A stretch of 64,000 bases of DNA, from IMG/VR virus record IMGVR_UViG_3300045988_164075, one strand, 5' to 3'. This DNA comes from a virus. The position numbers were made by a program, and so were the translations under genes. The notes below the pieces were generated by a model that did no database searches, was not told where the DNA came from, and worked only from the letters and a program-made list of their open reading frames with translations. Shown here one piece after another: positions 1,776-62,475 of this stretch; within the stretch, counting starts at the first letter, position 1, and the number at the start of each line of letters is the position of its first letter.

Positions 1776-1791
1776 TATTTAAATATATTTA

Positions 1792-2841
1792 GTGAATTAT
1801 ACATTAGAACCGACAGTTACCAAAGAATTGATTTTATCAAAAGTGCGAGAAGAAACTCTAATGGAGCATTATTTAGGTATTCCTGTCAAAAAAGGCTTAT
1901 TTAAGTCTCCACTTAGAGTTGATTCTCGTCCAACTTGTGCTTTTTACAGAAATAAAAAAGGCACAATTATCTTTAAAGATTTTCGAGGAGATTTTTCTGG
2001 AGATTGTGTATCGGTAGTAATGTATAAATTTGGCTGCTCCTTTTACAAAGCATTACAAATAATTGCAAATGATTTTGGAATAATCTCTAGAAAAGATTTA
2101 ACCATTAATCCATCAAAAATTAAGAAATATTCTGAAACGAAGTTTGAAGATAAAGGTAATGCTATTATTCAAGTAGAGTTAAAAGATTGAAATAGATTTG
2201 AATTAGATTGGTGACAATCGTTTGGAATCTCGCAGGAAACTTTAAAGAAATTTAGAGTTTACTCGTGTAAAAATGTGTTTTTAAATGGAGAAATATTTCA
2301 CTTATATAAAGAAAACCAGCTAGTATTTGGATATTTTGGAGGAATAAAAGATGATATAGAACAATGAAGAATCTACTATCCAGGTAATAGAAAATATAAG
2401 TTTATTTCTAATTGAAAGCAAATTCAATTACAAGGTGCTAAACAACTTCCAAGAAATGGCGGAGAATATTTAGTTATTACAAAATCTCTAAAAGATGTAA
2501 TGACTATATATGAATGTAGTAATCTTCCAGCTATTGCTCCAATTTCTGAAAACTGTTTTATAACTGATTCACAATATCAACGTTTAAAAGCTAAGTTTAA
2601 GAAAATTGTTTTATTCTATGATTCGGACATTGCTGGGATTTCTAGTATGAATAAGATTAGAAAAAAATATCCAGATTTATTTATTGTATTTATTCCGAGA
2701 AAGTATCATTGTAAAGATATTTCAGATTTTTATAAAAAGTACGGATTAGATAAAACAATTAACTTAATTAATACAGCAAAACAATATATTGATGAAGAAG
2801 ACAGTATCAGAAGAAATAAAACCAAAGAGGAAACGATCTAA
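1792..2841 (+). CDS. DnaG/TOPRIM-type DNA primase
   Basis: GTG start. ORFs 1792-2190 and 2500-2841 share a frame and are joined through 5 in-frame TGA. LVITKSLKDVM and VLFYDSDIAG resemble the TOPRIM E...DxD region. The N-terminus has a Cys-containing finger-like segment. Confidence 0.6.
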
Positions 2842-3196: not shown

Positions 3197-3230
3197 AAAT
3201 AGGAGATCTTTTGATCTCCTATTTTTATTT
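3197..3230 (+). terminator. rho-independent terminator-like hairpin
   Basis: aaataggagatc-tttt-gatctcctattt followed by a T-rich run. Confidence 0.6.
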
Positions 3231-3239
3231 TATTAAAAT

Positions 3240-3716
3240 ATGAAAATTATTATTCAATCTTTTGGAGATATTATAACTAATTCTAGTACTGAAACCTTTT
3301 GTATAAGTAATGGTTCAGTTAGCGACCTACAATTACTTATTGATACTATTTTAAAAGTTTATGGTATAAATAATTCATCGATTATTGTTAAAGAAATAGT
3401 TGATTATGATTCATTAAGTGATTTGTCTAGTGGCCAGGTAGAAACTCTAGCTGAAATTGTCTATGAAAATTCTGGTATTGATTCTAATACTTTTCTAGAA
3501 TATGCTAGTTTAGGCAAATGGAATCTACTTGAAAATATGCTCTCAAATGTAGGTAGTAGTCTTTTAGAAATGGCTAAAATATATAATGATACTGTACAGT
3601 ACGGTTTAATTTTTACTCGTTATACAATTGAAACTACTATACCTAATACAGATGCATTAAAACAGCAAATTGAAAATTTGTCGGATTTATTTAGTTTCGG
3701 AGAATATGAATACTAA
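3240..3716 (+). CDS. QS-x2-DIITNSS family paralog 1
   Basis: N-terminus MKIIIQSFGDIITNSSTETFC. TAA stop, no in-frame TGA. Confidence 0.75.
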   Translation: MKIIIQSFGDIITNSSTETFCISNGSVSDLQLLIDTILKVYGINNSSIIVKEIVDYDSLSDLSSGQVETLAEIVYENSGIDSNTFLEYASLGKWNLLENMLSNVGSSLLEMAKIYNDTVQYGLIFTRYTIETTIPNTDALKQQIENLSDLFSFGEYEY

Positions 3717-4218
3717 AATTTTATTTGAATTTAATATTCAATCTATAACTGATATTATTACAAATAGTTCTAGCGAATTATTTGTATTTAAAAATAGAGA
3801 GCTTGAAGATTTAGTATTAATTCTTTCTTTAATTCATCCTTGTTGGAACCTGGAATATAATGAACCAATACAGGTTAATAGAATGCGTGATGATGAATTA
3901 GTTACATATTTAGAATGGGTATATGGTGGGTCAGATTTTGATTATGAAATTAGAAATATTCCTATTACTAAGGAAAATACAAAACGTACAGGAGTTGCTA
4001 AACATTTTGGATTAAAACCAAAATTTGTTTATGAAGATTACGAAAATTGGGATCCTAATATAAATAAACTTAGTCTTAAATATCTGCCTGAAGGTTTAAG
4101 AACAATTCGAGCAATGATCCCTGATACTACCTTTGCAATGTATTCTAAAGACGATAATCCTACATGGGAATATCAAGAAAAATTTGAACGACTTGGTAAA
4201 CGTTATCATCTAGGTTAA
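3706..4218 (+). CDS. QS-x2-DIITNSS family paralog 2
   Basis: ATG at 3706 gives MNTKILFEFNIQSITDIITNSSSELFVF. It overlaps paralog 1 by 11 nt. TAA stop. Confidence 0.7.
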   Translation: MNTKILFEFNIQSITDIITNSSSELFVFKNRELEDLVLILSLIHPCWNLEYNEPIQVNRMRDDELVTYLEWVYGGSDFDYEIRNIPITKENTKRTGVAKHFGLKPKFVYEDYENWDPNINKLSLKYLPEGLRTIRAMIPDTTFAMYSKDDNPTWEYQEKFERLGKRYHLG

Positions 4219-4219
4219 A

Positions 4220-4612
4220 ATGAAAATAATTATTTTAAAAACTCAATCTTTCTCGGATATTATTACTAATAGTAGTAGTGAATTATTTGTAGTTAAAGGA
4301 GATAGATATAGCAGTGCATTTGAAGATTTTTTATATGTAGAAAATATAGGAGACCTTCAGTGGTATCTTGAACGAAAAGAAATACTCTTACCTGAAATAA
4401 GAAAATATCTTAAAAATCCACCTAAAACAATATGTGACGGGTTTGATATAGATGACTATCGAAACGCGCTACGAGAAGCAATTAAAAACAATGATTTAGA
4501 TAAGTATAAAAATTGTTCTTTTGTAGTTTTAGGGGATCATATGGATTATGATACATGGCAATCTATAAAAGATTCTTTATATCCGAATATATATTATGAA
4601 AGTTGGCATTAA
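4220..4612 (+). CDS. QS-x2-DIITNSS family paralog 3
   Basis: MKIIILKTQSFSDIITNSSSELFVV. It starts 1 nt after the previous stop. Confidence 0.75.
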   Translation: MKIIILKTQSFSDIITNSSSELFVVKGDRYSSAFEDFLYVENIGDLQWYLERKEILLPEIRKYLKNPPKTICDGFDIDDYRNALREAIKNNDLDKYKNCSFVVLGDHMDYDTWQSIKDSLYPNIYYESWH

Positions 4613-4907
4613 TATTCAGTCTTATGTTGATGTAATTACTAATTCATCAACTACTGTGTTTTGCTCTATAGAAAGTGATTTTGAGACGATAATTCAAAAT
4701 ATTGAAGATTATTTAAATTCTTTTCTTCCATTTAAAGTTAAATATCATAGATCGTGTATTATTAAAACATATTCAATTACATTTGAGGTGGAATATGGAG
4801 AAAATGAAGAACTTACTGAAAATATATGTGCACTAATTGAACAATTGCTTTCTGAGCATTTTCCGAATGGAGGATATTTTGTAACAAGTGGATATGAATA
4901 TAATTAA
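4596..4907 (+). CDS. QS-x2-DIITNSS family paralog 4
   Basis: MKVGINIQSYVDVITNSSTTVFCS. It overlaps the previous gene by 17 nt. Confidence 0.75.
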   Translation: MKVGINIQSYVDVITNSSTTVFCSIESDFETIIQNIEDYLNSFLPFKVKYHRSCIIKTYSITFEVEYGENEELTENICALIEQLLSEHFPNGGYFVTSGYEYN

Positions 4908-5190
4908 TATACAAAGTATTACTGATATAGTTACAAATAGCAGTACAGAGGTATTTATTCGTGTAAAGGAGACTGCTATTAACACAGTTAAAGAGCTTAT
5001 TAATGATCTTCTTAAAATAAGCGGATCTACACTTCAAGCAGATGATTTATTTACAATTGAAATATTATATGATGATAGTTCAGATTTAATGGTTACTCCA
5101 AAACAAGATACAACAGAGTGTATTGAAGCGGCTGTAATTCTTTCTTCTTTAAGAAGTTTATTTAATTATGAAGTACATGAAGATCGATAA
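4888..5190 (+). CDS. QS-x2-DIITNSS family paralog 5
   Basis: MDMNIINIQSITDIVTNSSTEVFI. It overlaps the previous gene. Confidence 0.75.
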   Translation: MDMNIINIQSITDIVTNSSTEVFIRVKETAINTVKELINDLLKISGSTLQADDLFTIEILYDDSSDLMVTPKQDTTECIEAAVILSSLRSLFNYEVHEDR

Positions 5191-5545
5191 ATTAATTCCA
5201 ATTCAAAGCTATTCAGATATTATAACTAATAGTTCATCTGAATTATTTTGTACTATAACTTCTGAAAAACATCTTAAAGAAATATATCAGATATTAGATA
5301 GTATCGTTGGATATAGGCAAGAACCAGAAATAGATGTTTGTATTAATTACTGTTCTAAATCTAACATCGAAGAATCAGAACTAAAAAGTCAGTTTTATAA
5401 AGAATTGCCAGATAAATGGATTGAAGTAGATTATCCTTATTATAAGAATTCCGTAAAAGAATTTTATATTTCTGGTTTTGAAGGAATTTTAAATAAGAAA
5501 ATAGGTAAAGCAAATTATAAAATTAGATATTATTTAGGAGATTAA
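5168..5545 (+). CDS. QS-x2-DIITNSS family paralog 6
   Basis: MKYMKIDKLIPIQSYSDIITNSSSELFCT. It overlaps the previous gene and ends 3 nt before the radical SAM start. Confidence 0.75.
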   Translation: MKYMKIDKLIPIQSYSDIITNSSSELFCTITSEKHLKEIYQILDSIVGYRQEPEIDVCINYCSKSNIEESELKSQFYKELPDKWIEVDYPYYKNSVKEFYISGFEGILNKKIGKANYKIRYYLGD

Positions 5546-5548
5546 ATT

Positions 5549-5839
5549 ATGAAAGATTGGACAAGTTGGGGAATTAAAAGAAGAGTATTTCCAGATAAAA
5601 ATTATAATGCAATATGGTATAATCTCAAAACACTCCGATTAGGAACAGGACAGGCTAGCGAACTTGATTATCCTGAGTTTTATGATATTGGAATTAATAC
5701 TAAGTGTAATCTTAATTGTCCAATGTGTTATGTTAGTGCTAAAAGTTCGGGAGTAAATTATACCGATATTTGTGAAAAGGCTAAATTCTTTTTTGGACAA
5801 ATGACAGGAAATGAAAGGCCATTTCAAGTGGCAATTGGT
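5549..5839 (+). CDS. radical SAM enzyme, exon 1
   Basis: CNLNCPMCYV is the CxxxCxxC Fe-S/SAM motif. The standard ORF dies at TAA 5843-5845 just after QVAIG. The exon ends in U. Confidence 0.8.
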
Positions 5840-5872
5840 GAATAATAATTTTAGTATTAATTTATAAGTATA

Positions 5873-5904
5873 TTTGGTTGTAGTGTAAATACTGCCTATT
5901 TTTG
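5873..5904 (+). promoter_or_regulatory. Bacteroidota-type promoter (-33 TTTG / -7 TAnnTTTG) inside the intron
   Basis: TTTG at 5873-5876, a 20-nt spacer, then TATTTTTG at 5897-5904, upstream of the endonuclease ATG at 5929. Confidence 0.5.
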
Positions 5905-5928
5905 TATTATAATAAAAATAAATATATT

Positions 5929-7062
5929 ATGATACAATGTGGAATTTACAGGATCCTCAATACTATTAATAATAAGTTTTATATAGGATCGTCAGTAAAC
6001 TTAAGAAAAAGGCTTTATGAACATCGAAGATTACTTCGTTTAGGTAAACATGAGAATTATCATCTACAAAACGCGTTTACTAAATACGGAGAAGAAAATT
6101 TCAAGTTTGAAATTATAGAAGTTTTAAAAGAAGTACCAAAAGATATTAGAGTATTAAGAGATTTAGAAACAGATTATATCCAAAAGTTTAAATCTTATGA
6201 TCAGTCTATTGGATATAATGTAATTAAAGGAGGAATAGGTACAATTAATACTCCTTGTTCAGAAGAAAAACGACAAAAAATTTCAGAAAGTAATAAAGGT
6301 AAGTCTGCGTGAAACAAAAATGTTCCTATGACTGAAGAACAAAAACAATTACTGAAAAAAATTCAAACTAGCGCCCGAGGGAAATCTATTGACGTTTATA
6401 CTTTAGAAGGAGAATTTATTGAAACTATTGGATCGATTAGAGAAGCTAACCGTAAATATTGTTGTGGACGAAATACAATCAAAAATTGCTGCGAAGGTTT
6501 AACATTACCTAAAAAACATATTTTTGTTTATCATGGAGATTCGTTAGATATTATAGCCAAAAATAGAGTTACAATATCAGATGAAGATAAACGATTAAAT
6601 ATTGAGAAAAGTAGAGAATGCCGTGGATATACAGTTGATGTATACAATATGTCTGGAGAATTGGTAGATGTTGTAAAGGGGCTTGAAGCTGCATCAGAAA
6701 AATACGGAATGATTTCGCATAATATTTCTAAACAGATGCGAGAAAAAATAAATGGGAAAGGTCCATATACGTTTAGGCATCATAATGATTTTTCAGTTTA
6801 TGTATATTCTATATATAACAATAATGATTTACTTTATCGGTCTTTTTCTAAAAAATGTATTCGCGAATATTTAAGCAAAAATAAAATTCGTCTTGGACAA
6901 GCATTTAGTAGATTAATTTCTGAATCTTTAACTTCTATTTCAAAATATACTTATCAAATTAAATACGAAATCGCCCATACTGGAAGTAATTCTGGTATTG
7001 AATCGCGCCAATCCGAAGAAATAAATTCGGAGGTCTCTAATGAGGCTAACGGTGAAACCTAA
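5929..7062 (+). CDS. GIY-YIG homing endonuclease (I-TevI-like)
   Basis: GIYRILNTINNKFYIGSSVNLRKRLYEHRR is the GIY-YIG motif. ORFs 5902-6312 and 6328-7062 are one frame joined through TGA 6310-6312. The C-terminal half is repeat-like. Confidence 0.85.
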
Positions 7063-7231
7063 GTCAGAAGTGATATGGTAACACCGTGCTAACTTTAAAG
7101 GTAATATGTTAAAGTAGTGTAACGAGTATGGATGAACCTTCTAACGAAGAATATAAAACTTTGAAGGGCGCGACATCCTTTATAGGATGAAAATGTACTC
7201 TGTGGTAATAGAAATATTACTGTCGCCAACG

Positions 7232-7843
7232 TCAACAGGCGAACCAAGTTTGCACGAAAGCTTCTGTGAATTTCTTGAAACGTTGTTTTACTTAGGAATT
7301 GTTCCAAACTATACAACGAACGGTATTACTATAGCAGAAGACTCTGATCTTAGTACTAAAATACTTGACTATACCTCTCGTTTTGTTGGAGGAGTTGCTG
7401 TTTCTGCTAATGAGTGGTCAGAACATATTGGTAAAGCATGGAGGAGAGCTATATATAAATTAGATACTTTTGGGAATACAAATATTAATATTCACTATAT
7501 TATTAAAGATATTGAAAGTGTTAATAAATTCTTAGATATTTATAAAGAATTTAAATATACAGTATTATACTTTGTGTTACTACCTCTTATGCCATCTGGT
7601 AGATCAAAAGAAAAGTATAGTGAAGATGCATTTGAATATTTACTTCAACAAGATTTAGATTGGGGTAAAATTGCATTTGGTGCACATTTTTATAATTCAT
7701 TACTCAATCAAAATAAAATTAAATGCTATTTATATCCTCCTGAGAGTCTATCTAAAAATCTTCTTTTAGATAGTACTATTAAAGTAACACCATCGTCATT
7801 TAACTTAAATCCTATAAAAGAAATTAAATATGAATACATGTAA
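7232..7843 (+). CDS. radical SAM enzyme, exon 2
   Basis: STGEPSLHESF...VPNYTTNGITI matches the GEP and TNG motifs of the radical SAM core. No Cys-rich SPASM tail. TAA stop. Confidence 0.75.
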   Translation, partial: STGEPSLHESFCEFLETLFYLGIVPNYTTNGITIAEDSDLSTKILDYTSRFVGGVAVSANEWSEHIGKAWRRAIYKLDTFGNTNINIHYIIKDIESVNKFLDIYKEFKYTVLYFVLLPLMPSGRSKEKYSEDAFEYLLQQDLDWGKIAFGAHFYNSLLNQNKIKCYLYPPESLSKNLLLDSTIKVTPSSFNLNPIKEIKYEYM

Positions 7844-8048
7844 AGTTACATTTGAAAATTCAAATGGGCAACAAGTTATTGTAATACTTTCTTTAAATAA
7901 AGAAAAGAACGAACTTGATATGAAACTTGGATTTTCTCCAAAAGTTGATCCTCATACTGATCTCGGATTAGCTGGACAATTTGCAGATATTTTCTGTAAA
8001 GCTCTTGGAGCTAATAATGAATCTACTCCATCTGAAAAACAACAATAA
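7830..8048 (+). CDS. small hypothetical protein, last gene of the operon
   Basis: ATG overlaps the radical SAM 3' end by 14 nt. TAA stop, then a terminator hairpin. Confidence 0.55.
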   Translation: MNTCKVTFENSNGQQVIVILSLNKEKNELDMKLGFSPKVDPHTDLGLAGQFADIFCKALGANNESTPSEKQQ

Positions 8049-8061
8049 TATATTATACTTA

Positions 8062-8096
8062 AGTCCGCGTTAGACCTTTTTAACGCGGACTATTTA
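8062..8096 (+). terminator. terminator-like hairpin
   Basis: agtccgcgtta-gaccttt-ttaacgcggact, an 11-bp perfect stem. The trailing T run is weak. Confidence 0.5.
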
Positions 8097-12519: not shown

Positions 12520-13243
12520 AGCTACTATTATTAAAAATAAAGAATATCTTCCGACTTCTGATTATGTTTCTCCGTTTTTGGATCAAATGTCTAAATTTAC
12601 AGACAATTTTACTGTTCAAGTTAAACTTCCTACTCAGATTACAACAACTGCTGAATCGGACGATGTAACATATAATAGAGTATGAATTCAAGCAATATTA
12701 CCAGAAAAATATTGTATTGAAAATCATGATGAAGTATATGGTTTAGTATACGGTTTAGATGTACGTACTCCTGTTTATAAAGTATATCGTGGAATGTTAA
12801 ATCGCGCATGTACAAATTTATGTGTTTTTGATCCATCTTGAATGGAAGTAAACGAAATTAAACCAGGAGAAAATTTTGTATATCATATTACTGCTTTAAT
12901 GGAGAAAGTATCTCATTTTGAAGCAACAATTAAGAAAATGAAAAATACAGTTCTTTCTAGTGATGTAGAAGAACGACACAATAGATTAGGTAATTGAATT
13001 GAAAAATGTGTTTTAGAAGAATATACTGGAACTGGAGGAAAAGTTAAACTTTCCCCATCTACAGTTATAGATGCTTATAATGGAGTTTACTTCGATTCTT
13101 CTTCTAAATATTATGTTGGCAATGAAGATTCAACTGTATTCAATTTCTATAATGCATTTACAGAAATCATTAAGGACGATAAGAAAGATATAATCAATAA
13201 GTTTGAAAAAACATTGCTTATTAACTCTTTATTTGAATTATAA
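12485..13243 (+). CDS. DUF932-like conserved phage protein
   Basis: ORF 12485-12685 extends through 3 TGA to TAA 13241-13243. YRGMLNRACTNLCVF resembles the DUF932 C-x-N-L core. Confidence 0.5.
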
Positions 13244-14122
13244 TGTTTATTATTAAACGAAACGGTACTAAACAAGAGTTTGATTCTTCAAAAATCGATA
13301 AAGCTATCTTATCTGCACTAAAAGCTTCTGGATGTAATACTGAGATCAATCAACCCTCAAAATATATTACAGTTGATAATGGAGATACTGTTGAAGTTAT
13401 TCAAGATCGAATTGAAAATTGATTGATGTCTATATGTCCTAGCGCAGCAAAAGCATTCATTTTATATAGAGAAAAACATAAAAATATTCGAGATTGAGTA
13501 AGTAAAAAAGAAAAATTCATTGAAAGATATAAACAATCTTCTAATACAGCTAATGCAACAATTGATGACAATTCTAACGTAAGTGGCAAAAATATAGGAA
13601 TATTAAACGCTGAAATACATAAATCAGATAATATTCTTATTAGTCGAGCAATGATTGAAAAAAAGTTAAAGGAATTATATCCAGAATTTGATTGCAAAAA
13701 CTATACTAAAGATCTATCTAATCATATTATATATAAGCATGATGAATCAGGATTTGCAGGAGCAATAGCACCATACTGTTGTAGTATAACTATGTATCCT
13801 TTTTTAAATGAAGGGATTAAAAAAATCGGTGGACTATCTGCATATCCAAAGAATCTTGATTCATTTTGTGGAATGTACATTAATTTAATTTTTGCTACTG
13901 CTGCTCAATTTGCTGGAGCTGTTGCAACTTCAGAATTTTTATTGTATTTTGATTATTTTGCCAAAAAAGAATGAGGTAAAAACTATTATACTATTCCAGA
14001 TACCATTATTACCTGTAATAGTTTAAGAAATAAAACAATTAGAAATCAAATTCATCAGTATTTTCAGCAAGTAATATACTCAATCAATCAACCTGCCGCT
14101 GCAAGAGGAATGCAAGCAGCGT
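13243..14122 (+). CDS. nrdD: anaerobic ribonucleoside-triphosphate reductase, exon 1
   Basis: The N-terminus MFIIKRNGTKQEFDSSKIDKAI is an ATP-cone. It continues through TGA codons to ...NQPAAARGMQAA. The exon ends in U. Confidence 0.8.
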
Positions 14123-15451
14123 CAATATAAAATTTTATTGCTTTTCTTAATTTTCTTCTGGATGTTTTAAATATTTTACTTATCTTTGTATATAATTTTA
14201 AAATAAAGTTTATATGGCAAAGAAAAGAAAATTTAACAAATCAAAAGAATGACTTATAGAACAATATGTTATTTTTGATCGTCCACGAAAAGAAATAGCG
14301 GCGGAATGTGGTTTATCAGAAGCGGGATTAAAATCTCTTCTTGCTGAATTTAAAATACTTAAAAATAAATTTACAATAGATAAAAAAGAATTAGAAAATT
14401 TAGTAAATCAAAAATTATCTGTAGAAAAAATCGCTAAACAATTAAATTGTTCTGAGACAAGTGTTTATAGATACTTGAAAAAATATAATTTAAATATATT
14501 AGCTGATCCAAAAATTTATAAACAGTATGATTCATCTAACGATGAAGAAATCATTAAAATGTACAATTCTGGTAAATCTTCAACTGATATCGCAAGATAT
14601 TTTGGAATTACTCATAATACTGTTTTGACTCACCTAGATCATTGCGGGATTAAGCGAAGAAATTATTCTGAATCTCAATGAATGTATAATCAAAAAGAAT
14701 TTCCACAAGATCTTAGGAATAAAGATTTAGTTTATGATTTATATATTAATCAAAAGTTAAGTAAAAAAGATCTTGGAGAAAAATACAATTGTGATCCAGA
14801 TGTAATTGATAGAATTCTTCACGAGTTTAAAATTCCAGTTAGAAATAATTCAGAATCTAAAATAGGATTACGAATTGGAGAAAATCATCCTAATTGACAA
14901 GGAGGAATTACTGGATTACATTACAGACTTAGAGAAGCTTTTTATGTACAACAAGTTCCAAAAGTATTGTATCGTGATAGATATAGGTGTCAGTTGTGTG
15001 GAAGTAAAAAAGATTTACACGTTCATCATATAAAACATTTTAGAGATATTTTTCATAGAATTTTAAATGAACATAAAGATTTAGATTTGATTAATGATCA
15101 AGATCAGTTATATAAAATAGCATTACAAGATAAAGAATTTACTAATTTAAATAATCTTATTACCTATTGTAAAGATTGTCATTTTTACAAAATACATGGT
15201 TATCAAAGAAAAGAAGAAAAGTTACAGGCGCTGCAAAAATCTCCTGAATTGCTGGAAACTCCAGAAATGGACAATCAGCAGCCGAGTATTATAAATACGG
15301 GTTCAACGACTATCTCAAATGAGAGTACATCTAAGCAGATGGAAGTAGGAGACACTTTAAATAGTGATGATATAGTCTAATCTATATAGTAATATATAGC
15401 AGTTCATAAGAGAACGCAAGATAATTAGCGACTATCTTGGAATTAAAATTG
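14123..15451 (+). mobile_element. group I-type intron carrying an HNH endonuclease gene
   Basis: Removal joins ...RGMQAA to FVNFSYFDKPFF. Core elements are gctggaaactcc...gacaatcagcagc...ggttcaacgactat...gatatagtctaa...ctatatagtaatatatag. It ends in G. Confidence 0.75.
14214..15380 (+). CDS. HNH homing endonuclease with repeated HTH-like modules
   Basis: ORFs 14475-, 14682- and 14967-15380 share a frame with ATG 14214 and are joined through TGA. HNH pattern is CQLCGSKKDLHVHHI...CKDCH. Confidence 0.85.
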
Positions 15452-16698
15452 TTGTTAACTTTTCATACTTTGATAAACCGTTTTTTGAGGGAATGTTTGG
15501 AGATTTTTGTTTTCCTGATGGGACTAAACCAGAATGAAGTTCTTTAAGTTGATTACAACAAGAATTTATGACATGATTTAATGCAGAAAGATTAAAAACT
15601 ATAATCACGTTCCCTGTTGAATCGTTTGCGCTTGTTTATAAAGATGACAAATTTATTGACCCAGAATCAGCGAAATTTGTAGCTGAAGAATATGCTAGAG
15701 GTCATTCGTTTTTTACTTATATTAGTGATAGTGTTGATAGTCTCTCATCTTGCTGTCGTTTGAAAAACATGGTTCAAACAAAAGAATTTAATTTTACTAA
15801 TGGCAATATGGGAGTTCAAACTGGAAGTAAAAGTGTTATTACATTAAATCTTAATCGAATTGTACAAGATAAATGTAAAGAACACAATCCTAGTGAAAGA
15901 ACTGTATGAAAAGAAGAAATGAAAGAATATTTGATTAATATTCTTAGTAGAGTTTATAAATATCATACAGCATATAATGCATTGTTACACGATATGTTCG
16001 ATGCGAATCTATTGCCTGTCTATAAAGCAGGATTTATTAATTTGGATAAACAGTATTTAACAATTGGAATTAACGGTTTAAACCAAGCTGCTGAATTTTT
16101 AGGTATTTCTTGTAATGATAACTTAGATTATAAAGAGTTTTGTCAGTTTATATTTAGTATTATTAAAGAACAGAATATTTTACATAAAACTAAAACTGAA
16201 ACATATAATACAGAATGCGTTCCTGCAGAAAGTTTAGCAATTAAAAACTACAATTGAGATAAAGAAGATGGATATTGAGTTCCAACCGACACTAATTTAT
16301 ATGCTAGTTATATTTTTAAACCGAATGATAAAAAACTTAGTGTATTAGAGAGAATAAAACTTCATGGAGCAGAATATATAGGAGAGTATCTAGATGGAGG
16401 TAGTGCAGCACATATAAATTTAGAGGAACATCTTTCAGCTAAACAATATGAAAAACTTTTGAAATATGCTGCTGAAGTAGGTTGTCAATATTTTACCTTT
16501 AATATACCTAACTCTGAATGTGAAGAGTGTGGTTTTATTTCAAGGATAGCGATTACAAAATGTCCAAAATGTGGATCAACAAATATATCTCTATGAGATA
16601 GAATTATTGGATACTTAACTAAAATAAAAAACTGATCTTCTGGAAGACAAATAGAACAAAAGACTAGAGTTTATTCTAAAAATATAGAAAATGGTTAA
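15452..16698 (+). CDS. nrdD: anaerobic ribonucleoside-triphosphate reductase, exon 2
   Basis: C-terminal Zn ribbon CEECG...CPKCG followed by DRIIGYLT, the glycyl-radical RxxGY motif. Several in-frame TGA. TAA at 16696-16698. Confidence 0.9.
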
Positions 16699-32714: not shown

Positions 32715-33433
32715 TGCAAAAAATAATCTCCGTTCAGGGGAACAAGTGAAGTGGTAAGGATACTGTAGCAAAAATGTTACAATATCTTCTTAGTACTCCT
32801 AAAATATTACATAAATATGATTTATACTGTAGATTAAAATGATTTAAAAAAGATTATAAAATCGTACGTTATGCTGATAAAATGAAAGAAATGTTAGCAA
32901 TATTATTAAATACAAACGTACAAAATTTTGAAGATAGAGAGTTTAAAGAGCAATATTATGTAGATTTTAATACGTTGCAGTTAATTCACGTTGATGAATC
33001 TAATATTAATGCTTTTAAAGATAAAATATTGTCAGATACAAGATTTACAAAAGAAATCAAACGTGTAAATCCAAATTTGACAAAAAACTATTTTCTATCT
33101 ATTAGACAAATATTACAATATTTTGGAACAGAAATTATGCGTTTTTATTTTGGAGATAGGTTATGAATTCTGTCTACTTTAAATAATAGAGGATCGAATA
33201 TTATTATTTCTGACCAAAGATTTATTATTGAAAATATTACTACATATAATTTAGGTGCTGTTATTATTCATATAACTCGACCTGGCTGTGAAAAAAGTTC
33301 TCATTCTTCTGAAACAGAATTAGATAAACTTTATCAAGATAAAGCCTATTCTTATTTAATTGAAAATAACGGAACATTGAGAGATTTATTTAATAATTGT
33401 AAAAAATTAGTTCAAGATGGCTTGTTCGATTAA
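32714..33433 (+). CDS. deoxynucleoside monophosphate kinase (T4 gp1-like)
   Basis: IISVQGNK-TGA-SGKDTVA gives the P-loop G-x-K-W-SGKD. ISDQRF motif present. Three in-frame TGA. In frame with ORF 32882-33166. Confidence 0.7.
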
Positions 33434-33575
33434 AAGATGTCCTATTTGTGAATCAAATAAAATTTCTCATGAATATCAAGATGCAGTTTATGGGAAATAT
33501 ATACGTGTATTTAATCAAGGCACTAAAGTTGAGAAATGTACAGTTTGTAATAATGGTACTCCAAAACGAAAATAA
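33417..33575 (+). CDS. small zinc-ribbon protein
   Basis: MACSIKRCPICES...CTVCNN has two CxxC pairs. TAA stop. Confidence 0.5.
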   Translation: MACSIKRCPICESNKISHEYQDAVYGKYIRVFNQGTKVEKCTVCNNGTPKRK

Positions 33576-33590
33576 TAACATATAAAATAA

Positions 33591-33629
33591 AAATACCCTA
33601 CATGCTTCGGCGTGTAGGGTATTTTTTTT
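33591..33629. terminator. bidirectional rho-independent terminator at the convergence point
   Basis: ataccctacatg-cttcgg-cgtgtagggtat has a UUCG-type loop. It is flanked by an A-run upstream and T8 downstream, so it can serve both strands. Confidence 0.75.
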
Positions 33630-36600
33630 AAAATATAGATATAGATGTACCTAAACCTCGAAGTGCTCCAAAATTTTCAGTTACTCCTACTCATAATTCT
33701 CTATCTCCTGTTAGTACTTCTCCAACATTATTAAACATGTTTTTAAATATACTATATGCGGGAGGATTTAGATCTCCAATCATTCCACTTATAATATTTT
33801 GTACAGGACCATCTTGAAAAGATCCATAAAGAGCACTTGCAGTTCAACGTTTTATTCACGGTTCCTCTTTGATATCATCTCAAGAAAATAGAGCTTTTAC
33901 TAATAAACCTAATAATAACATAAGTAACATATCATGTAAGAAAAGGAATAGATTTGCTCTTTTTATATCGTCTTTTCATAGTTTATTAAACTCAGATGTA
34001 TTAAGAGTAGATAATGCTTTTAAATACGAAAACATAGACCACATTATTCCTTCCTGAGGTCTACCTACTCATTCATAGAAATATTCTCATTTATCTCCTT
34101 CTTTAAGTTCATTCTCAAGTATAATATCTACTATAGGCTGTCCATTTTCATCAAACGTAATTCGTCTTACAAATTTATTTCCATTTTCATCGACTGCTAT
34201 TTTATAACTCCCCTGATCATAGGTACCAGGCTTTAGTACTCATTGTTCTAGTTTTGCAGATATAAAAGTTCGGAATTGTAGAAAAAAAGATCCTAAAAAC
34301 ATGTGCTTTGCTAACATCTGAGTATTTTTATCGTAATGTCCAAAACACATATCTGCAAATGATTTAATACTAGCAGATTCTCTTGCTGTATAAGCTTTAG
34401 GCAAAGCGTCTCCATCTTTTAAGTTATATCCTTCTCTATTAAACTGTTCTAGCATCGTGATATATAAAGCATGTTGTTTACGGTATTCTTCGCTATTTAC
34501 GTTAGGATTAGCAGAATGTAATAAGCTGAAACGTTTATCCTTTTTAAAATCATATACTAATTCTTCATTAACAACACTGTGCGCATCAAAACATCCATCA
34601 TGCATCATCTTTGCAACTAATATTGTCATTCGATGTAACATATCAGGAGCTCTTGAAAACATATATAACTGATTACTATCAAAGTTTAATATTCCCATTT
34701 TACTTAAACTCATCTCTCGATGTAATTGATCAGCATCAGAATTTGCCATACCGTATTGTCAATTCATATACTCTAACAGTGTAATTTTTCCAATAGACTT
34801 TGGAGCTTCCTTTAATACTGTCGTCATTGCTTTAGTAAAATCTTTCATAGTAAATTGATCCTTACCATAAATTCCAGCAGCAGTTCTAGATAATCCAATT
34901 CAAATGCCCTGTAATGTTTCTCTAGTACCTGATTTAAGGTTAAATCCAAGTGTAGTAGCTGTTGCTACTTGTTTTAGCATAGCCATAAACTTATATGCTG
35001 GTTGAAGTCCCTCGTCCATTATAGGTTCGTTATAGATATTTAATTGAGTATACTTTTTTATAAATTCAATCAGATTATCTACCTTTTGACCATAAAAGAA
35101 TTCTTGACACAATAATCCAATTTTAAATCCTTGAATTAAAGGAAGAAATTTAGAACTTACCTCTTCTGTTACGTATACATGTAAATAACTTCTAATAAGA
35201 TCTTCAAGATTAGTTTCCATACTCTCTACACCTTCATCATTAAGTATCTTGTTACGTGTAGATTGATCAATTCTGAATTTATTATATACTTCTAAACTAT
35301 CTCGTTCATAATTAGTTTTTTCCTCCTCTTGAGCATTAAAAAGTTGTCTAAAATTAGTTGCTTCTTGATAACTAAATTTTAAAGCTTTTCATACTCCTCC
35401 TTGTTTAGCTTGAGATTGAAATGAACCAATCATTAATGGAACTTGATAATATTCTCCAGATGCTTTTGCCTCTTCAATCGCAGTCTCATTACCTCTAAAT
35501 TTAATTTCATTAACTATTTCTAGAAATGTTGAAACTAATTCTTTGTCTGCTCCTGTTAATTCTTCAGGATGTTTTAAAGAAAATTCTTTTGCGATTTTTC
35601 CATTAGCATCTTTAACAAATAGATCATCATAAAATCTAATTTCCCCTCCAAATGCTTTTATTTGATGATGTGCCTTATAAAAACGTTGAAATACTCCTTG
35701 AATTTTTTTATTTCATTTTAATTCTTCTTTACGAATCTGTTCCTCATGTAATGCAATCAATCTACCCATTTCTTGGATATTTTTTGAATCAGCATTACTA
35801 ATACTAGTTATATTGATTCCTAAACTTACTCCTCCTTTAAATCCAATTCAATTACTCGGGTCTTTTTCAATATAGTATCTGTATCCATTTAACTGATTTA
35901 ATGCTTTTAATAATAAACTGTACGATACTCATATTGGATCATTAGGATTAGGCTTTTCGTTTACTAATTTGCGATATTTATTACGTAGTGCTTTAATTCT
36001 ACTAAGCACTCATTCTTTTTTACTTTCTAAGGTATTTTCATCAGGACCTATAGTTCAATTCATTAATTTATTTCATTCTTCCTCTTGAATTAAGTCATTA
36101 ACTGTAAATAATACAGATTCTAATGTATTTAGAAAGTTATTTGATGATAAATTGTTTTTAATGTTTGCAATTCTACAAAGTCTACTAAAATTATCTAGTA
36201 AAGTTTCATTATATTCTTCTACTCCTTGTGAAGTTCAAATATTTAAACTTTTAATTCGGCTAATTTTAGTTCCAGAAATTAAATTACTGTACTCATTTAA
36301 GTAAATCATTACTTTCATTAAATCAATATTACCATTAGTAGCAGGTAAAACAGTCTTAGGATCAATACCTTTATCTGTTAGAAAAGTACCTAATATAGAT
36401 GTACCTTTAGCTAATTTAAGGGTTTGATTTAATTCATTATTAGTAATAGAAACAATCTCTGTAACTCCTTCTTTTTCAAAAATAAATATACCTAAATCGT
36501 TTAAAATACTATTTTTTCTAAATAGCCATTTTTGATCAATATACTGTTTAAAATGTTTTTCTAAAAATACATCTTTATTAACACTATCGTCTGGAGAAAG

Positions 36601-38073
36601 TTCGCTTGTTGTTATTTCCCCACGTATCGCAGCTTCAATTCGATCTGCTAATGTTGCTAGTTCTCCTGCTTTACGTTCATTAATTCTATTAATATATGAT
36701 AACAGTTCTTTTTCTAATTCAGATTCATTTTTAGCATAATATACTTTGCGATTATATTTATCTCAAAATTTATATATACCCTTAGCAGATTCTTCTGTAT
36801 TTTTTGGAATACGTTTTACAAAAGTTGGAGAGTTCCTATAATACTCGTATGTTGAATTAGTAGTTTGAACTTTTCTAGATAAGGTTACATCGGGGAATAG
36901 TGTATTAAATGGTTTGGCTATTTTATCAATTAAATCAATATTTGTATCTTCATTTGGACGAATTGGAACAATTTTCTTAACATTTTCGTAAATTTTTCCA
37001 CCAGGCTCCGTGCCTCTAGGATTTCTTACAATTTTTGTAGAATCAAAAATAATTTCATTTAAATTCTCTACTGTTAAACCATTAGTATTGTAAGATAAAT
37101 CTAATTGAATTGGAACTACATTTATATCTGCGGTTTTAATTCCATATTGTTCTAAAATCATCTTGTAGAAGGTCATTTGATATGATGCAGAAAGTTTTTT
37201 AGTACTATGTCAAGTATTATTTAACTTATTAATATCATTTCGCATCATATCTCAGTCTCCAACTCCTTTACGGGATACTTTGAAATCATATATATGCGCT
37301 ATTCCATTCTCATCTATAACTAACATATCGATTCGTCCGTTAATAGAATTAATTGGACTGTTATCTTCAATAACTTTCCCATTATTATCTATTAAATAAC
37401 GATTACCTTTACGATAATTTTCATTAAGTTCCCGAGATTTAACAGCTAATTCTGTAAATATTTTTGCTTCATTGCCGTATCTACGTTTTATATCAGCAAT
37501 AAATTCTTTAAATTCACTAACAAATTCTTCCTGCTGTTCTATACTAAATAAGGAACTTTTAAAATTAGATTCTCTGCCTTCAATAACAGCTTGTGCTAAA
37601 TTATGAATTTCTGTTCCATAATTAGTAAGTTGTTTTCAAGAAGTTTCTTCCTGTAATACTAAATCTTTAGCTGTACTTTCAGATAAACCCGTAGCTAATC
37701 ATTCTTTGATACGCTTTTCTCTTCAAGCTTTAATATTAAATGGAGTAATAATATGTTTACTTAAGTCAGTAGGATCTCCAAATTCAGTAATGGCTCTAGT
37801 AACAGAAATAGAATTAGGAATTTTTAATATAACTTCACTATCTCCATCTTCGTTAATACGGATATTTTCTACAGCACTTTCTTTATATTCTAATTTAGCA
37901 AAATTCAAGTTATTTAAAGTTGCTGCTTGTGGAGTAGTTGAAAATGTTCTATCTAATTTAACAGTAACATTTTTATCCGCATATTGTGATTTAAGAAAGG
38001 AGTCCAACTCAAAATCAGAGTTGAACGTCCTTTCCTTTCCATCTATATTAATTGTAAATATACATTTACTCAT
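33628..38073 (-). CDS. giant virion-block protein (1481 aa) with a PD-(D/E)XK-like nuclease motif
   Basis: ORFs 37723-38073, 36763-37176, 34900-35220 and 34240-34749 share one frame and are joined through many TGA. The motif GRIDMLVIDENGIAHIYDFKVSRK lies near 37270-37340. TAA at 33628-33630. Confidence 0.75.
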
Positions 38074-40585
38074 AGCAATCCTCTTTTATTGTTTTATCTG
38101 AAATTAAACTATTTTTAATAGTAGCTAATTTTTGATTCAATTTTATATATTCTATATTAACTAGATCTGTAAATCCTCCCGATATAATTCCACTACTAAA
38201 AGTTTCTAATAAATTTTCTAATGAAGAATTCATTAAACTTTGTATATTAATATCTCCTGTATTAATATCGAATACCTGATTAATTACAGTTTTAGTAATA
38301 TTGTCTGTATCAGTTAATAAATTATTCTCGGGTCATTCGTAAACCTTATTTTTAAAATATTCTCCTAATATTGTTGCAAATACTTCTTCGTCAAGATCAG
38401 ATCCATGTTTATTTGCATACATCGGATTACTTGCGATCTCGTTGTATTTTGGATGCGTAACAATACTAGATAATATATTATAATAAACCTCTGGACTATT
38501 CTCTTTAATTCCTGCTAATACTAAATGTGTAAACTCGTGTAATGGAGCAGTTATACTAGCTTTATCTATGTTAATAAATACAATTCCATCTTGTATAAAA
38601 GCTTCAGAGTTTCGAATAGATATATCGTCACTAGTATTTATATCATTATCTGTAATAACTTGTATTTGTGATTCAGGATATATATTTCTTAGTCGACTTG
38701 TTATTGCATTTAGAATTTCTGCTGAATTTAACTCTTGATGATAATAAGAAGTTGTCCTAGGTTTAATTTCAACCAGTTTGTTCTTAGCTAAATTTGCATT
38801 GTTACCTTCTAGAAATGGCATATTTAAAGTAAAATATGAAGTATCTATATTATGCAAATTAACTTCTTGTCTATTTACAGATATTATTCCAGCGTCATTA
38901 TCTCGTTCAATATTTAACTTTTTTGGATTATTAGTAACAATACCTAAACGATACTTAGCATCTCTAATATCATAATTAATAGATTTATTCATGGAATAAT
39001 CTAAATTTGATAAATATGAATAAAATTGAGTTGCTAATAAATTACTTGAATTAATTTTTGTAATATCTTCAAATAACCTCGTAAATGATCTTTGTCCAAA
39101 TGCATCTTTGTTCACAACTAAATTATATAAATAGAATAAATCGATAACGTTTCATCCATCAAACGTCTTTCCATTTAACAAGTTAAAATCGTGTAATATT
39201 GCTTCATACAATGTTTGATTTCTTAAAGACTTATCTATTTGCATCATATTTAGAGGTAACTTATAAAATACATTTGGTTTATCGGAGTATGGATTATTTA
39301 TAGTTCCTCATGTTAATAATTTAATAAATAAATTATTTGCAAAATTTGGATCAGATTTTAAAGTTGGAATAATATATTCGTCCATTAAACGTTTAAATGT
39401 TGCTATATTTTCAACATTATTTAGATTAATTTCAAATCCTTCAATAGAGTTTGTTTTAACTATTCCAAATTTATTTGCAAAATATTTTTGTCCAATAGGA
39501 ATGTGTATTGATCTATCTAGAGTTTGAATTCAATTATATATAAATACATCATTTATATATTTAGATAATTCTCTATATTCGATTGCATTTAATTTATTAT
39601 CTGGAGAAACTAGTTCGTTAGCTATTTTAGTTTCAAAATAATTTTTTGCTGCTAAACTATCAATTGCAGTTCTATCTAGATATAATACCTGAAACATTTC
39701 TTTGAAATGTGGAACTGTAGTAATAGCTTCCAATATATTAAATGTTGATTTAACTTTTTCGTATCTATTTATATATTCTTGCTGTTTTATAGGATCATTT
39801 AAGAATAGCATTAAATCAAAGTTAGGATTCTGATCAAATCGCTTATTAACAAAGGCTTCAATTCTTTTAATGTAATTATATTTATCAAAAGAACTAGTTC
39901 TGATACCTTGATTTATTCCTGCCATTGCTCCAAGAATAGATTGTTCCTCAGTTGCAGGTAATACTTTATTTACAATAAATCGCAGATTATCAATTTGTTC
40001 CTGTAAGTTAGGAGTATTATCTAGTTGAAGTTTTCTTGTTATAAAAGATTTAACTACTTTATATGCATTAATATAATCCTCTTTAGTTAATTTAATATTC
40101 AAATTAATATTTACTCCATCTTCAGACTCATCGAAGAATTCATCAAAGAATTCTTCAGAATAATCACTATATTCTGCGAATAGTTCTTCATCAACATCTT
40201 CACTTAGATAAGCAGATTTACGTTTAGGAATATTATTTAAGATATTATTTTCAAGTTCTTCTAACTTATTAGCATCGTTAATAACAGTTTCTCAAAAATA
40301 TTTCCTATCTACAAACGGCTCAATTAGTTTAAAGAAAGACGTTTCACTTAAATAAGGTAATATATGTTCTCCTAAATAAAAATTAATTGCAGATTCGATG
40401 GAAAATTTATACGTACTTTTATCAAATATATCTCCATCCGTAACCTTTACCACATAATTAAATATAGGGGAAGTCATTATATCTGCAATTTGATCGAATG
40501 ACATACCAGTTATCAACAAATGTGTATAAATATCTACGAACTTAGCACTTGCATTAATTTTTGCTAATATAAGCTCTTTAGCATT
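38066..40585 (-). CDS. giant RNA-polymerase-like protein, exon 3 (C-terminal part with HExxH)
   Basis: It starts NAKELILAKINA. ORFs 40292-, 39530- and 38333- share a frame through TGA. APLHEFTHLV is a zincin HExxH motif near 38524-38538. TAA at 38066-38068. Confidence 0.7.
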
Positions 40586-56501: not shown

Positions 56502-56514
56502 ATTATTGCTTAAA

Positions 56515-62458: not shown

Positions 62459-62475
62459 AATTATTGTAGCTATAT

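Follow-up and report, generated by a model that had tools for sequence, protein, structure and literature searches.

A short Ser-rich N-terminal segment, here called the head, marks a very large, unannotated and phage-only protein superfamily, whose genes adjoin a radical-SAM (rSAM) gene in most of the loci examined. We analysed the family in a 64,000-nucleotide stretch of viral DNA (IMG/VR record IMGVR_UViG_3300045988_164075; the window) and in related loci. In our preferred reading, which we hold at a probability of about 0.45, the rSAM protein docks on or modifies the exposed head, and one maturase would serve many diversified early phage proteins.

Six tandem head proteins with diversified bodies

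Six plus-strand open reading frames at 3240-5545 each carry the consensus IQSxxD(I/V)(I/V)TNSS(S/T)xxF. When the window was translated in all six frames, the strict pattern QS..D[IV][IV]TNSS[ST] matched six times, always on the plus strand within 3240-5545, and it gave no match in 200 shuffles of the sequence. The six genes are as follows:

3240..3716, plus strand: paralog 1, 158 aa; head IQSFGDIITNSSTETF; C-terminal end ...GEYEY
3706..4218, plus strand: paralog 2 (RYHLG class), 170 aa from ATG, with an upstream TTG at 3670 as alternative start; head IQSITDIITNSSSELF; C-terminal RYHLG
4220..4612, plus strand: paralog 3, 130 aa; head TQSFSDIITNSSSELF; C-terminal end ...YYESWH
4596..4907, plus strand: paralog 4 (small class), 103 aa; head IQSYVDVITNSSTTVF
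4888..5190, plus strand: paralog 5 (small class), 100 aa, GTG start; head IQSITDIVTNSSTEVF
5168..5545, plus strand: paralog 6 (small class), 125 aa; head IQSYSDIITNSSSELF

The six motif strings and six N-S-S codon triplets given in a preliminary description of this DNA proved exactly correct on recheck. Ser is encoded now from the TCN and now from the AGY box, in support of selection on the motif at the protein level. The same description proposed an old family under purifying selection, and each paralog indeed has its own orthologous subfamily in other phages at 40-60% identity; orthologs of paralog 1 were found at 54-98% identity. Its further claim, that only the motif is common and that divergence is complete thereafter, holds in part. 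Between different size classes no sequence homology was detectable beyond about residue 60, but some 50 residues are homologous: profile-profile comparison of the small class with the 170-aa class gave a probability of 99% (E = 7e-19) over about 50 columns, which reach from the head through the first beta strand to the first helix. Paralogs 4, 5 and 6 are full-length homologs within one subfamily of 100-130 aa.

Among 870 full-length homologs of the RYHLG class, including Lak megaphage members, residues P45, E50, Y51, S147, N151, P152 and Q157 are invariant and the C-terminal R166, H168, L169 and G170 nearly so. The polar residues of this set (E50, Y51, S147, N151, Q157, R166 and H168) look like an active site of the protein's own, which counts against the maturase reading.

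The head matches no annotated domain

In the preliminary description the motif was not recognised as any known domain signature, in agreement with the absence of significant matches in Pfam, PHROGs, NCBIfam, PADLOC and the PDB. Nothing significant came from HMM searches of the first four databases with the six paralogs, longer members of the family and sister-branch members (see below), and the PDB yielded no match by sequence or by profile. Full-text literature searches on the head motif, and on rSAM in connection with crAss-like, Lak or RB43-type phages, turned up no account of it. Similarity searches revealed no relatives of the window or of paralog 2 among isolate phages; a search with a sister-branch member from IMG/VR likewise gave no match, possibly owing to low-complexity masking. 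The giant virion ORFs were not recognised by PHROGs, so we make no crAss-like assignment. Several known motifs were compared with the head and mismatched at invariant positions: the PP-loop (SGGxDS), GDSL/SGNH block I, HAD motif I, beta-clamp and PIP-box binding motifs, the Bacteroides O-glycosylation site D(S/T)(A/I/L/V/M/T) and pyruvoyl self-processing sites.

AlphaFold2 predicted the bodies confidently but left the head undocked in both of two independent models. The model of paralog 2 reached a pLDDT of 87.8 and a pTM of 0.80, with the head at only about 50 (106 sequences in the alignment). That of paralog 6 reached 83.7 and 0.74, with head residues 13-21 below 50, and its predicted body has a ferredoxin-like beta-alpha-beta-beta-alpha-beta layout. 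Foldseek returned no significant match for either model in the PDB or BFVD (best E = 0.26, 2.3 and 0.49); the non-significant look-alikes of both were ferredoxin-like, those of paralog 6 in the PDB being weak ACT/PII/ABM-like hits at E > 0.2. The models accord with the earlier suggestion that the conserved head is a common module placed before diversified bodies. The head is the most conserved segment and yet the sole part that AlphaFold2 fails to place; a segment whose folding depends on a partner would be expected to behave in this way.

A divergent radical-SAM gene follows the six paralogs

The key neighbour, absent from the preliminary description, is a divergent rSAM gene at 5549-7843, with its start codon 4 nt beyond the end of paralog 6. 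The gene and the apparent limits of the module comprise:

3197..3224, plus strand: terminator-like hairpin, 12-bp stem followed by a T run (consensus scan only)
5549..5839, plus strand: rSAM exon 1, containing CNLNCPMC (CxxxCxxC) and ending ...PFQVAIG
5840..7231, plus strand: intron-like insertion of 1,392 bp with a GIY-YIG and NUMOD3 homing-endonuclease ORF
5902-7062, within the insertion: the homing-endonuclease ORF, with one in-frame TGA (Pfam GIY-YIG, E = 9.6e-10)
7232..7843, plus strand: rSAM exon 2, starting STGEPSLHE and including the NYTTNG motif
7830..8048, plus strand: 72-aa ORF, the last of the apparent operon
8062..8091, plus strand: terminator-like hairpin, 13-bp stem (consensus scan only)

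Joined, the two exons encode a protein of about 300 aa. The insertion boundaries are exact by comparison with an uninterrupted relative (L006), and in another relative (L004) the insertion is only 317 bp long and lacks the endonuclease ORF. The insertion core has a folding z of -4.7, and neither the long nor the 317-nt form matched an Rfam intron family. Inteins and homing-endonuclease introns have invaded the rSAM gene repeatedly; such invasion is generally typical of genes that phages cannot afford to lose.

Membership of the radical SAM superfamily is indicated by CNLNCPMC and G(S)TGEP/NYTTNG, which are invariant across 29 homologs. The match to Pfam PF04055 scored 18.3 bits, under the cut-off, and for many close homologs PF04055 is a precomputed assignment; a profile match to PDB entry 7tol had E = 1.4e-7. 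The weak best matches are protein or peptide maturases (tungsten-cofactor maturase, mycofactocin maturase, SPASM/twitch), in favour of the maturase reading. However, the likeness to characterised rSAM enzymes covers the generic core only, and no PqqD/RRE-like domain was matched in the protein; both count against it. Apart from the three cluster Cys, the gut-branch rSAM has one nearly invariant Cys and so lacks the SPASM/twitch auxiliary-cluster Cys typical of peptide maturases, a further argument against that reading. In a distant branch, typified by D479, weak SPASM (E = 0.12) and twitch (E = 0.0066) matches were seen. The rSAM sequences share 65-96% identity, far above the conservation of the bodies, as expected for one enzyme reading one motif.

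The genes of the module overlap or abut throughout and two hairpins bracket 3240-8048, in support of one functional unit. From its sequence, the hairpin at 3197..3224 likely closes an upstream primase/nuclease unit and marks the 5′ boundary of the module's transcription unit, although no equivalent was found in one relative (L001); that at 8062..8091 is likely the 3′ boundary. Relatives have a small ORF at the position of the 72-aa ORF. The stop codon is TAA in all six paralogs and in-frame TGA is absent from each, so that their translation is identical under the standard code and the phage's TGA-recoded code. Codons of the module include 0 TGA and 15 TGG, against 70 TGA and 41 TGG in the other plus-strand genes (p = 1.6e-6). 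The lack of TGA codons fits expression before the code switch, and on codon usage the module is probably expressed early.

Head genes and rSAM are linked across phages

The gut branch alone, to which the window belongs, comprises at least 2,132 clusters at 50% identity. In a family-centred set (78 IMG/VR loci plus 3), arrays of one to six head genes adjoin rSAM wherever the flank suffices. The pairing is kept in five loci that lack the usual primase/nuclease neighbours (L016, L017, L019, L077 and L079) and occurs in reversed order in two (L053 and L063). In another (L072), rSAM is lost together with all head copies except one, which is truncated. In an rSAM-centred set, one to six head genes adjoin rSAM at all 80 loci, including a 395.6-kb contig whose rSAM is 48% identical. 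A 660-kb Lak megaphage has three head genes and an intein-bearing rSAM, and in L083 an RYHLG-class member comes directly after an intein-bearing rSAM. The linkage has exceptions, which weigh against the maturase reading: there is no rSAM within 8 kb of a second Lak array, which comprises six genes, and none was seen on the short contig L082. Many loci come from one phage clade, so that some of the synteny reflects inheritance and not independent maintenance.

Head arrays are located in replication or early regions, not in head-morphogenesis modules, and have expanded repeatedly to 2-10 diversified copies. Copy number varies, and chimeric head/body forms occur in metagenomes. The preliminary description would have been undercut by a family that was common and never expanded or tied to particular neighbours; profile and neighbour comparison instead revealed one that is common, repeatedly expanded and linked to rSAM.

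At 40 loci from varied environments, genes of a sister branch (MKIRNGFVSNSSSSSF...) stand in arrays of as many as 10. rSAM, at 24 of these loci, is the only other family shared among them; every other occurs at three loci or fewer. The first 16 residues of the sister-branch head are essentially invariant from Met1 and the sequence is free after about residue 18; the conserved Glu of the gut-branch head is Ser here. The branches give a short hhalign match (E = 8e-5 to 5e-4), which, with the shared architecture and homologous rSAM, indicates that they are homologous. A first hint of the sister branch, a 132-aa protein of D479, had E of about 0.05-0.08 among 69 ORFs and was not significant against profiles. 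The branch is present in cultured T4-like phages such as RB16, and head and rSAM occur together in cultured Escherichia and Klebsiella phages (RB16, RB43 and the KP15/KP27 group); in RB16 the two head genes lie about 20 kb from rSAM, a further exception to close linkage.

The head variant tracks the rSAM clade: IITNSSSELF occurs with the 306-aa rSAM, FVSNSSSSSF with the D479-type rSAM (34-48% identity) and FVTNSSSSSF with a third, divergent clade (L170 and L180). This co-diversification argues for the maturase reading.

Candidate roles of the head

Under the maturase reading, the six head genes and the downstream rSAM gene would form a single functional module. rSAM would recognise the exposed, nearly invariant Ser-rich head, h-h-[T/S]-N-S-S-S-x-x-F, on every paralog and most likely modify it post-translationally, a single maturase acting on all of these diversified small alpha/beta proteins. 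The working proteins would be the paralogs themselves, probably as early host-takeover or counter-defence factors. Our data show the family and its arrays, their genomic coupling to rSAM, the match between head variant and rSAM clade, the unplaced head in the AlphaFold2 models, the confinement to phages and the lack of TGA codons in the module; we infer the physical recognition of the head by rSAM, the occurrence and chemistry of a modification and the role of the bodies. A bolder version, which we regard as doubtful, is a phage system in which rSAM installs a protein-derived cofactor, cross-link or warhead in the head and thereby arms rapidly diversifying small early proteins for takeover or anti-defence, common to gut megaphages, recoded gut phages, marine and soil jumbo phages and cultured T4-like coliphages.

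The preliminary description had likened the conserved head and variable body either to leader-plus-core substrates or to a common module fused to diversified domains. The occurrence of rSAM beside the family across unrelated phage lineages favours the latter, with the head as a substrate or docking handle for a shared enzyme. The former fits poorly, because the bodies are predicted to fold and no conserved protease, transporter or RRE partner lies nearby. In its RiPP-like form, with the head as leader and the remainder as an rSAM-modified core released as a peptide natural product, it would account for one rSAM beside tandem genes with a conserved N-terminus and variable remainder, as in multi-precursor RiPP loci. 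We nevertheless consider it highly improbable: the bodies are 100-280 aa long, predicted to be folded domains with pLDDT above 85-95, and constitute conserved orthologous subfamilies; rSAM is the sole conserved neighbour, there is no GG/GA-type cleavage motif and PqqD/RRE searches gave no match. The head could instead be a docking handle, with the paralogs as interchangeable specificity or regulatory subunits that bind rSAM and steer its radical chemistry to different targets, for example metabolites, nucleic acids or proteins of the host. The linkage and co-diversification data fit this model equally, and the genomic data cannot separate it from the substrate model; also in its favour are the undocked head in the monomer models, the confidently predicted diverse bodies and the minimal size of rSAM, about 300 aa, in which no accessory domain for substrate binding is recognisable. 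Arrays can, however, be distant from rSAM, and we know of no precedent for an rSAM enzyme with arrays of up to 10 alternative subunits; we judge this model unlikely.

The two remaining explanations assign rSAM no action on the proteins. The paralogs might be autonomous small enzymes or ligand binders, in which the Ser-rich head and the C-terminal His/Tyr end come together as a site on binding a ligand that rSAM makes or consumes. The additional invariant or near-invariant polar residues of the RYHLG class are suggestive of this, as are the beta-strand-(S/G)(D/E)(D/E)N...H end shared by related classes and the motifs peculiar to other subfamilies, such as GSGMGG; judging from the paralog 6 model, the last strand of a ferredoxin-like fold would lie beside the first and bring the C-terminal end next to the head. 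Yet only the head and first beta-alpha unit are conserved across size classes, the catalytic site would need a tail that AlphaFold2 cannot place even with 106 aligned sequences, and the sister-branch pattern of 16 invariant residues followed by free sequence is that of a recognition tag and not of an active-site loop. This makes independent enzymes quite improbable. A targeting tag for capsid packaging and injection or for timed proteolysis, with rSAM beside it by incidental synteny, would explain an invariant, predicted unstructured N-terminus before diversified small bodies, plastic multi-copy arrays of variable copy number and chimeric head/body forms. We think it a long shot. The arrays lie in replication or early regions, and rSAM is their only conserved partner, where a protease, portal or scaffold gene would fit the model. 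The gut-branch Glu is Ser in the sister branch, so that a cleavage residue common to both is not apparent, and the same head occurs despite the very different virion types of T4-like phages, Lak megaphages and the window's clade.

If the maturase reading is correct, one of the larger unannotated phage protein superfamilies would for the first time have a lead to its function, in a seemingly obligate partnership with a dedicated rSAM. We know of no established role in phage biology for the modification of folded phage proteins by rSAM enzymes. Repeated array expansion, phage-only distribution and code-neutral, probably early expression point to the host-virus interface, and the occurrence of head and rSAM in cultured Escherichia and Klebsiella phages makes the proposal directly testable by standard genetics and mass spectrometry.

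Comparison with known systems

Parallels include known rSAM enzymes that act on protein segments. In the anSME (rSAM/SPASM) and sulfatase system, one maturase serves many proteins with a short Ser-containing motif near the N-terminus and acts on a segment not yet folded into the body; both systems are found in gut anaerobe settings. Unlike sulfatases, the head family has neither the (C/S)xPxR motif in alignments nor a sulfatase domain in Pfam, so we do not assign it to this group; moreover, the gut-branch rSAM lacks the SPASM auxiliary-cluster Cys, and its putative substrates are phage proteins of 100-250 aa encoded in tandem arrays. Ser-to-formylglycine chemistry on the head would be pure conjecture. 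The rSAM RiPP maturases (NHLP/Nif11-leader, SCIFF and streptide/sactipeptide systems) resemble the module in tandem paralogs with a conserved N-terminal segment, a variable remainder and a single rSAM. Here, however, the variable part is a predicted folded domain and not a short core, RRE/PqqD, leader protease and exporter are missing, the conserved segment spans 12-16 residues at the extreme N-terminus, and the system is confined to phages.

Glycyl-radical-enzyme activases (PflA and NrdG) are likewise small rSAM proteins without auxiliary clusters that act on an exposed peptide segment of a folded partner. In contrast to glycyl radical enzymes and spare-part proteins, the head family lacks RVxG[FWY] and falls outside that group, its conserved residues being T/S-N-S-S-S; its C-terminal ends (RYHLG, ...EYEY, ...ESWH and similar) hold no family-wide conserved Gly. 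A distinct NrdD is already encoded in the window, and a distinct NrdG-like gene is present in relatives. T4-type internal proteins have an N-terminal capsid-targeting sequence that is cut by the prohead protease after (L/I)xE. T4 IPI-III are similar to the head proteins in pairing a short conserved N-terminal tag with diversified small proteins in hyperplastic multi-copy loci of large phages. They differ in that the arrays described here are linked to rSAM and not to head genes, and in sharing no evident protease cleavage residue: the Ser that takes the place of the gut-branch Glu in the sister branch speaks against a common Glu-specific site.

Six tandem genes share an N-terminal head

The array consists of six open reading frames (ORFs) whose products share a serine-rich N-terminal block, here termed the head, with the remainder termed the body. 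A radical-SAM (rSAM) gene and a 72-aa ORF follow, and terminator-like hairpins flank the whole set on both sides.

3197-3224: terminator-like hairpin
3240-3716, plus strand: paralog 1
3706-4218, plus strand: paralog 2
4220-4612, plus strand: paralog 3
4596-4907, plus strand: paralog 4
4888-5190, plus strand: paralog 5
5168-5545, plus strand: paralog 6
5549-5839 and 7232-7843: exons of the rSAM gene
5840-7231, plus strand: intron-like insertion of 1,392 bp containing a GIY-YIG/NUMOD3 endonuclease ORF
8062-8091: terminator-like hairpin

All six paralogs carry the motif IQSxxD(I/V)(I/V)TNSS(S/T)xxF, its Gln falling at residue 6-13. In a six-frame translation of the 64-kb window the strict motif is found six times, always inside the array, and not once in 200 shuffles. 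The motif strings and N-S-S codon triplets of the preliminary description are exactly right. Serine codons switch between the TCN and AGY boxes, and the same codon is used at only 27-77% of identical residues, so conservation is at the protein level. Each of the six paralogs has its own orthologs in other phages, at 40-60% identity; the duplications are therefore old, as first proposed, and not recent.

The earlier impression that the paralogs share only the motif is overstated. Paralogs 4, 5 and 6 (the small class) align end to end with a subfamily of 100-130 aa proteins, and a profile-profile comparison between this class and the 170-aa class to which paralog 2 belongs gave 99% probability (E = 7e-19) over ~50 columns, from the head through the first beta strand to the first helix. 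Between the C-terminal halves of the different size classes, no homology was detectable. Nine hybrid metagenome proteins (P0001, P0008, P0014, P0019, P0029, P0034, P0056, P0080 and P0082) pair the start of one paralog, head included, with the body of a second, reflecting either recombination-driven deletion via the conserved head-coding DNA or assembly chimeras. Such recombination, if real, would explain the variation in copy number from 1 to 6.

Structure and distribution of the head family

Searches of the head proteins against Pfam, PHROGs, NCBIfam, PADLOC and PDB sequences gave no significant match, in keeping with the initial view that the motif is no known domain signature. AlphaFold2 models of paralog 2 (106 homologs aligned; pLDDT 87.8, pTM 0.80) and paralog 6 (47 homologs; pLDDT 83.7, pTM 0.74) have confident bodies, that of paralog 6 with a ferredoxin-like beta-alpha-beta-beta-alpha-beta layout. 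No segment of the family is more conserved than the head, yet the head is left unplaced in both models, with pLDDT of ~50 or less. Foldseek comparison of the two models with PDB and BFVD returned nothing significant. The class of paralog 2 (150-200 aa, 870 members detected) has further invariant residues (P45, E50, Y51, S147, N151, P152 and Q157) and a conserved C-terminal end, RYHLG, in which R166, H168, L169 and G170 are near-invariant.

In a set of 1.84 billion representative proteins, a 35-residue profile of the head region picked out 2,132 clusters at 50% identity. Among the 150 matches listed, all but one have the head within the first ~50 residues, and lengths are mostly 90-210 aa. Scanning 185,579 species-representative bacterial and archaeal genomes yielded one locus, on a phage contig wrongly binned with a Methanobacteriaceae MAG; in essence, then, only phages carry the family.

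The rSAM gene is the recurring neighbour

The gene that starts four nucleotides past paralog 6 has the motifs CNLNCPMC, G(S)TGEP and NYTTNG in its ~300-aa product, which is a divergent radical-SAM enzyme. Existing annotations call the enzyme 'putative radical SAM protein', 'Fe-S oxidoreductase' or 'maturase', and the head proteins 'hypothetical'. The SPASM/twitch cysteines were looked for in rSAMs of the window's branch (the gut branch, with IITNSSSELF-type heads) and are absent.

We collected 78 IMG/VR loci centred on the head family and three from another source. These carry 1-6 head genes between a Toprim primase/RusA-like nuclease pair and the rSAM gene, which still adjoins the head genes where the primase and nuclease are missing or the gene order is reversed. 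In one locus (L072, 10010-10621) a truncated first paralog alone remains, the rSAM gene and the other paralogs having been lost together. When loci were instead centred on the rSAM gene, at least one adjacent head gene was present in 80 of 80, three of them with variant heads reading SSTS or SSST; the set includes a 395.6-kb contig. It had been considered that the family might prove common and never expanded or linked to particular neighbours; the loci show expanded arrays and rSAM as the recurring neighbour. The array is real, and considerably larger as a finding than could be seen in the preliminary description.

The 660-kb horse Lak megaphage has a member of the paralog 2 class and two more head genes beside an intein-bearing rSAM homolog. 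Some 200 kb away in the same genome lies another array, of six head genes, that lacks a nearby rSAM gene. L083, an unrelated small contig, has an intein-bearing rSAM gene followed directly by a paralog 2-class member. The two inteins lie at different positions within the CxxxCxxC region (L167 10067-11593 for the Lak homolog; L083 2063-3313). In the window, the insertion falls exactly between ...FQVAIG and STGEP..., and among near-identical relatives the site exists in three states: uninterrupted (L006), 317 bp without the endonuclease ORF (L004) and full (L005). The 317-nt core is strongly structured (z = -4.7); no Rfam intron family matched and no class was assigned. The insertion bears the signature of a mobile intron. 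The two inteins and the intron together show the rSAM gene to be a recurrent target of selfish elements, a fate typical of highly conserved phage genes.

In some large phages, genes of NAD or ADP-ribose metabolism adjoin head genes: a nicotinamidase-like candidate assigned by eye (L053, 10479-11970), and NADAR, PARG and NUDIX, assigned from listed Pfam matches, around metagenome protein P0269. These neighbours may hint at a counter-defence neighbourhood.

A sister branch includes cultured phages

Vibrio phage D479 gave a weak rSAM match, and beside it lies a gene for a 132-aa protein starting MKIRNGFVSNSSSSSF. Searching IMG/VR with this protein gave 40 loci of varied environmental origin (contigs of 9-548 kb), with 132 distinct proteins in which positions 1-16 are almost invariant (M-K-I-R-x-G-F-V-S-N-S-S-S-S-S-F) and consensus is absent past ~residue 18. 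Tandem arrays reach 10 genes per 10 kb. The only other shared gene family is the D479-type rSAM (24 of 40 loci), which has weak SPASM/twitch signals; every further family is limited to three loci at most.

The heads of the two branches align (FVSNSSSSSFII with IITNSSSELFvv; hhalign E = 8e-5 to 5e-4), the match being short and its probability only 32-61%. The rSAMs are homologous (26-32% identity, tblastn E down to 1e-13), and some sister-branch members end ...RFHLG, resembling paralog 2. Head variants follow rSAM clades: VSN heads occur with D479-type rSAMs and VTN heads (L170, L180) with a third clade. These points are evidence that the two branches are related, within a wider superfamily.

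The D479-type rSAM occurs in 173 cultured phage records, including RB16, RB43, Lw1, KP15, KP27, Miro and GAP161. Escherichia phage RB16, a T4-like coliphage, encodes at least two head proteins, both starting MKIRSGFVSNSSSSSF, in the scanned part of its genome (outside 98.5-176.8 kb), with the rSAM homolog ~20 kb from the head genes (L209/L211).

66610-67077: RB16p106, head protein
70488-71000: RB16p111, head protein
90403-91557: RB16p156, rSAM homolog

Records with RB16p111 homologs number 175 and are spread over genera just as those of the rSAM are; ~175 isolate genomes of Klebsiella, Enterobacter, Cronobacter, Citrobacter and Escherichia phages have both. These records are essentially one clade, and the agreement is therefore consistent with a link and not independent evidence for it.

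The module is neutral to the genetic code

The window reads TGA as a sense codon: ORFs of 2691, 1903, 1485 and 1386 aa appear only with read-through.

1783-2841, plus strand: ORF with sense TGA
33628-38085, minus strand: ORF with sense TGA
42758-48469, minus strand: ORF with sense TGA
48453-56528, minus strand: ORF with sense TGA
58316-62476, minus strand: ORF with sense TGA

Assignment to tryptophan fits, TGA largely replacing TGG in long ORFs (e.g. 24:2, 21:1 and 18:1); the window holds no tRNA genes. All six paralogs stop at TAA and are free of TGA, which makes their reading frames valid in either code. Across the array, rSAM exons and 72-aa ORF (3240-8048) there are 0 TGA and 15 TGG, against 70 and 41 in the other plus-strand genes (Fisher p = 1.6e-6). 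Head genes in 72 related loci are likewise depleted (TGA:TGG 115:814 versus 1166:4171, p = 5e-12), and those of the most heavily recoded relatives lack TGA altogether. The module is thus translatable in both codes, which fits expression before the phage code switch or recent import from a standard-code phage.

Other features of the window

An anaerobic ribonucleotide reductase (NrdD-like) gene is apparently split by an ORF with HNH-like features (13243-14130, 14214-15380, 15493-16698), assigned from translations and the NRDD/HNH arrangement in relatives L002 and L003. Two adjacent proteins (525-1046 and 1089-1775) have acidic tails, ...EEDSLPF and ...EDDDLPF, resembling the C-terminal protein-interaction tip of bacterial SSB. 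Gene orientation changes from plus to minus at ~33400-34200, where two gene blocks converge; GC and AT skew flip sign at about 33.5-34 kb, where cumulative GC skew is maximal.

Possible roles of the head and rSAM

In the HMM and PDB libraries, the 7.7 million full-text papers and the bioRxiv preprints searched, neither the head family nor its arrays nor the rSAM link was found described. Any explanation has to accommodate a head that is extremely conserved and apparently undocked, bodies that have at most the first beta-alpha unit in common, and the repeated growth of the family into arrays. It must also cover the fact that only one partner is conserved, the rSAM, with clades that follow the head variants and a sequence far better conserved than those of the bodies. 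Because it accounts for these facts most economically, we favour, at a probability of roughly 0.45, a scheme in which the rSAM would recognise the head and probably modify it: one maturase, many substrates.

Alternatively, the head could be a docking handle, with the paralogs serving as alternative rSAM subunits, though we consider this rather unlikely. The extra invariant residues of the RYHLG-ending class speak for autonomous small enzymes, with an active site formed in part by the head and by the His/Tyr-rich C-terminal end, and with the rSAM in the same pathway; we regard this, too, as unlikely. It seems improbable that the head serves as a tag for packaging or turnover, with only an incidental linkage to rSAM. 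A RiPP leader-core system is the least credible: the bodies, at 100-280 aa, are predicted to be folded, and a conserved RRE, protease and exporter are all absent.

Whether the rSAM acts on the head is directly testable in cultured coliphages. If it is a maturase, it would belong to a type already known, rSAM maturases with protein substrates; its restriction to phages, the folded substrates encoded in tandem arrays and the N-terminal Ser-rich target would be unusual. The proposed system would resemble anSME and the sulfatases in having one maturase for many substrates, and PflA provides a precedent for a minimal rSAM working on an exposed segment of a folded protein, as proposed here for the head.
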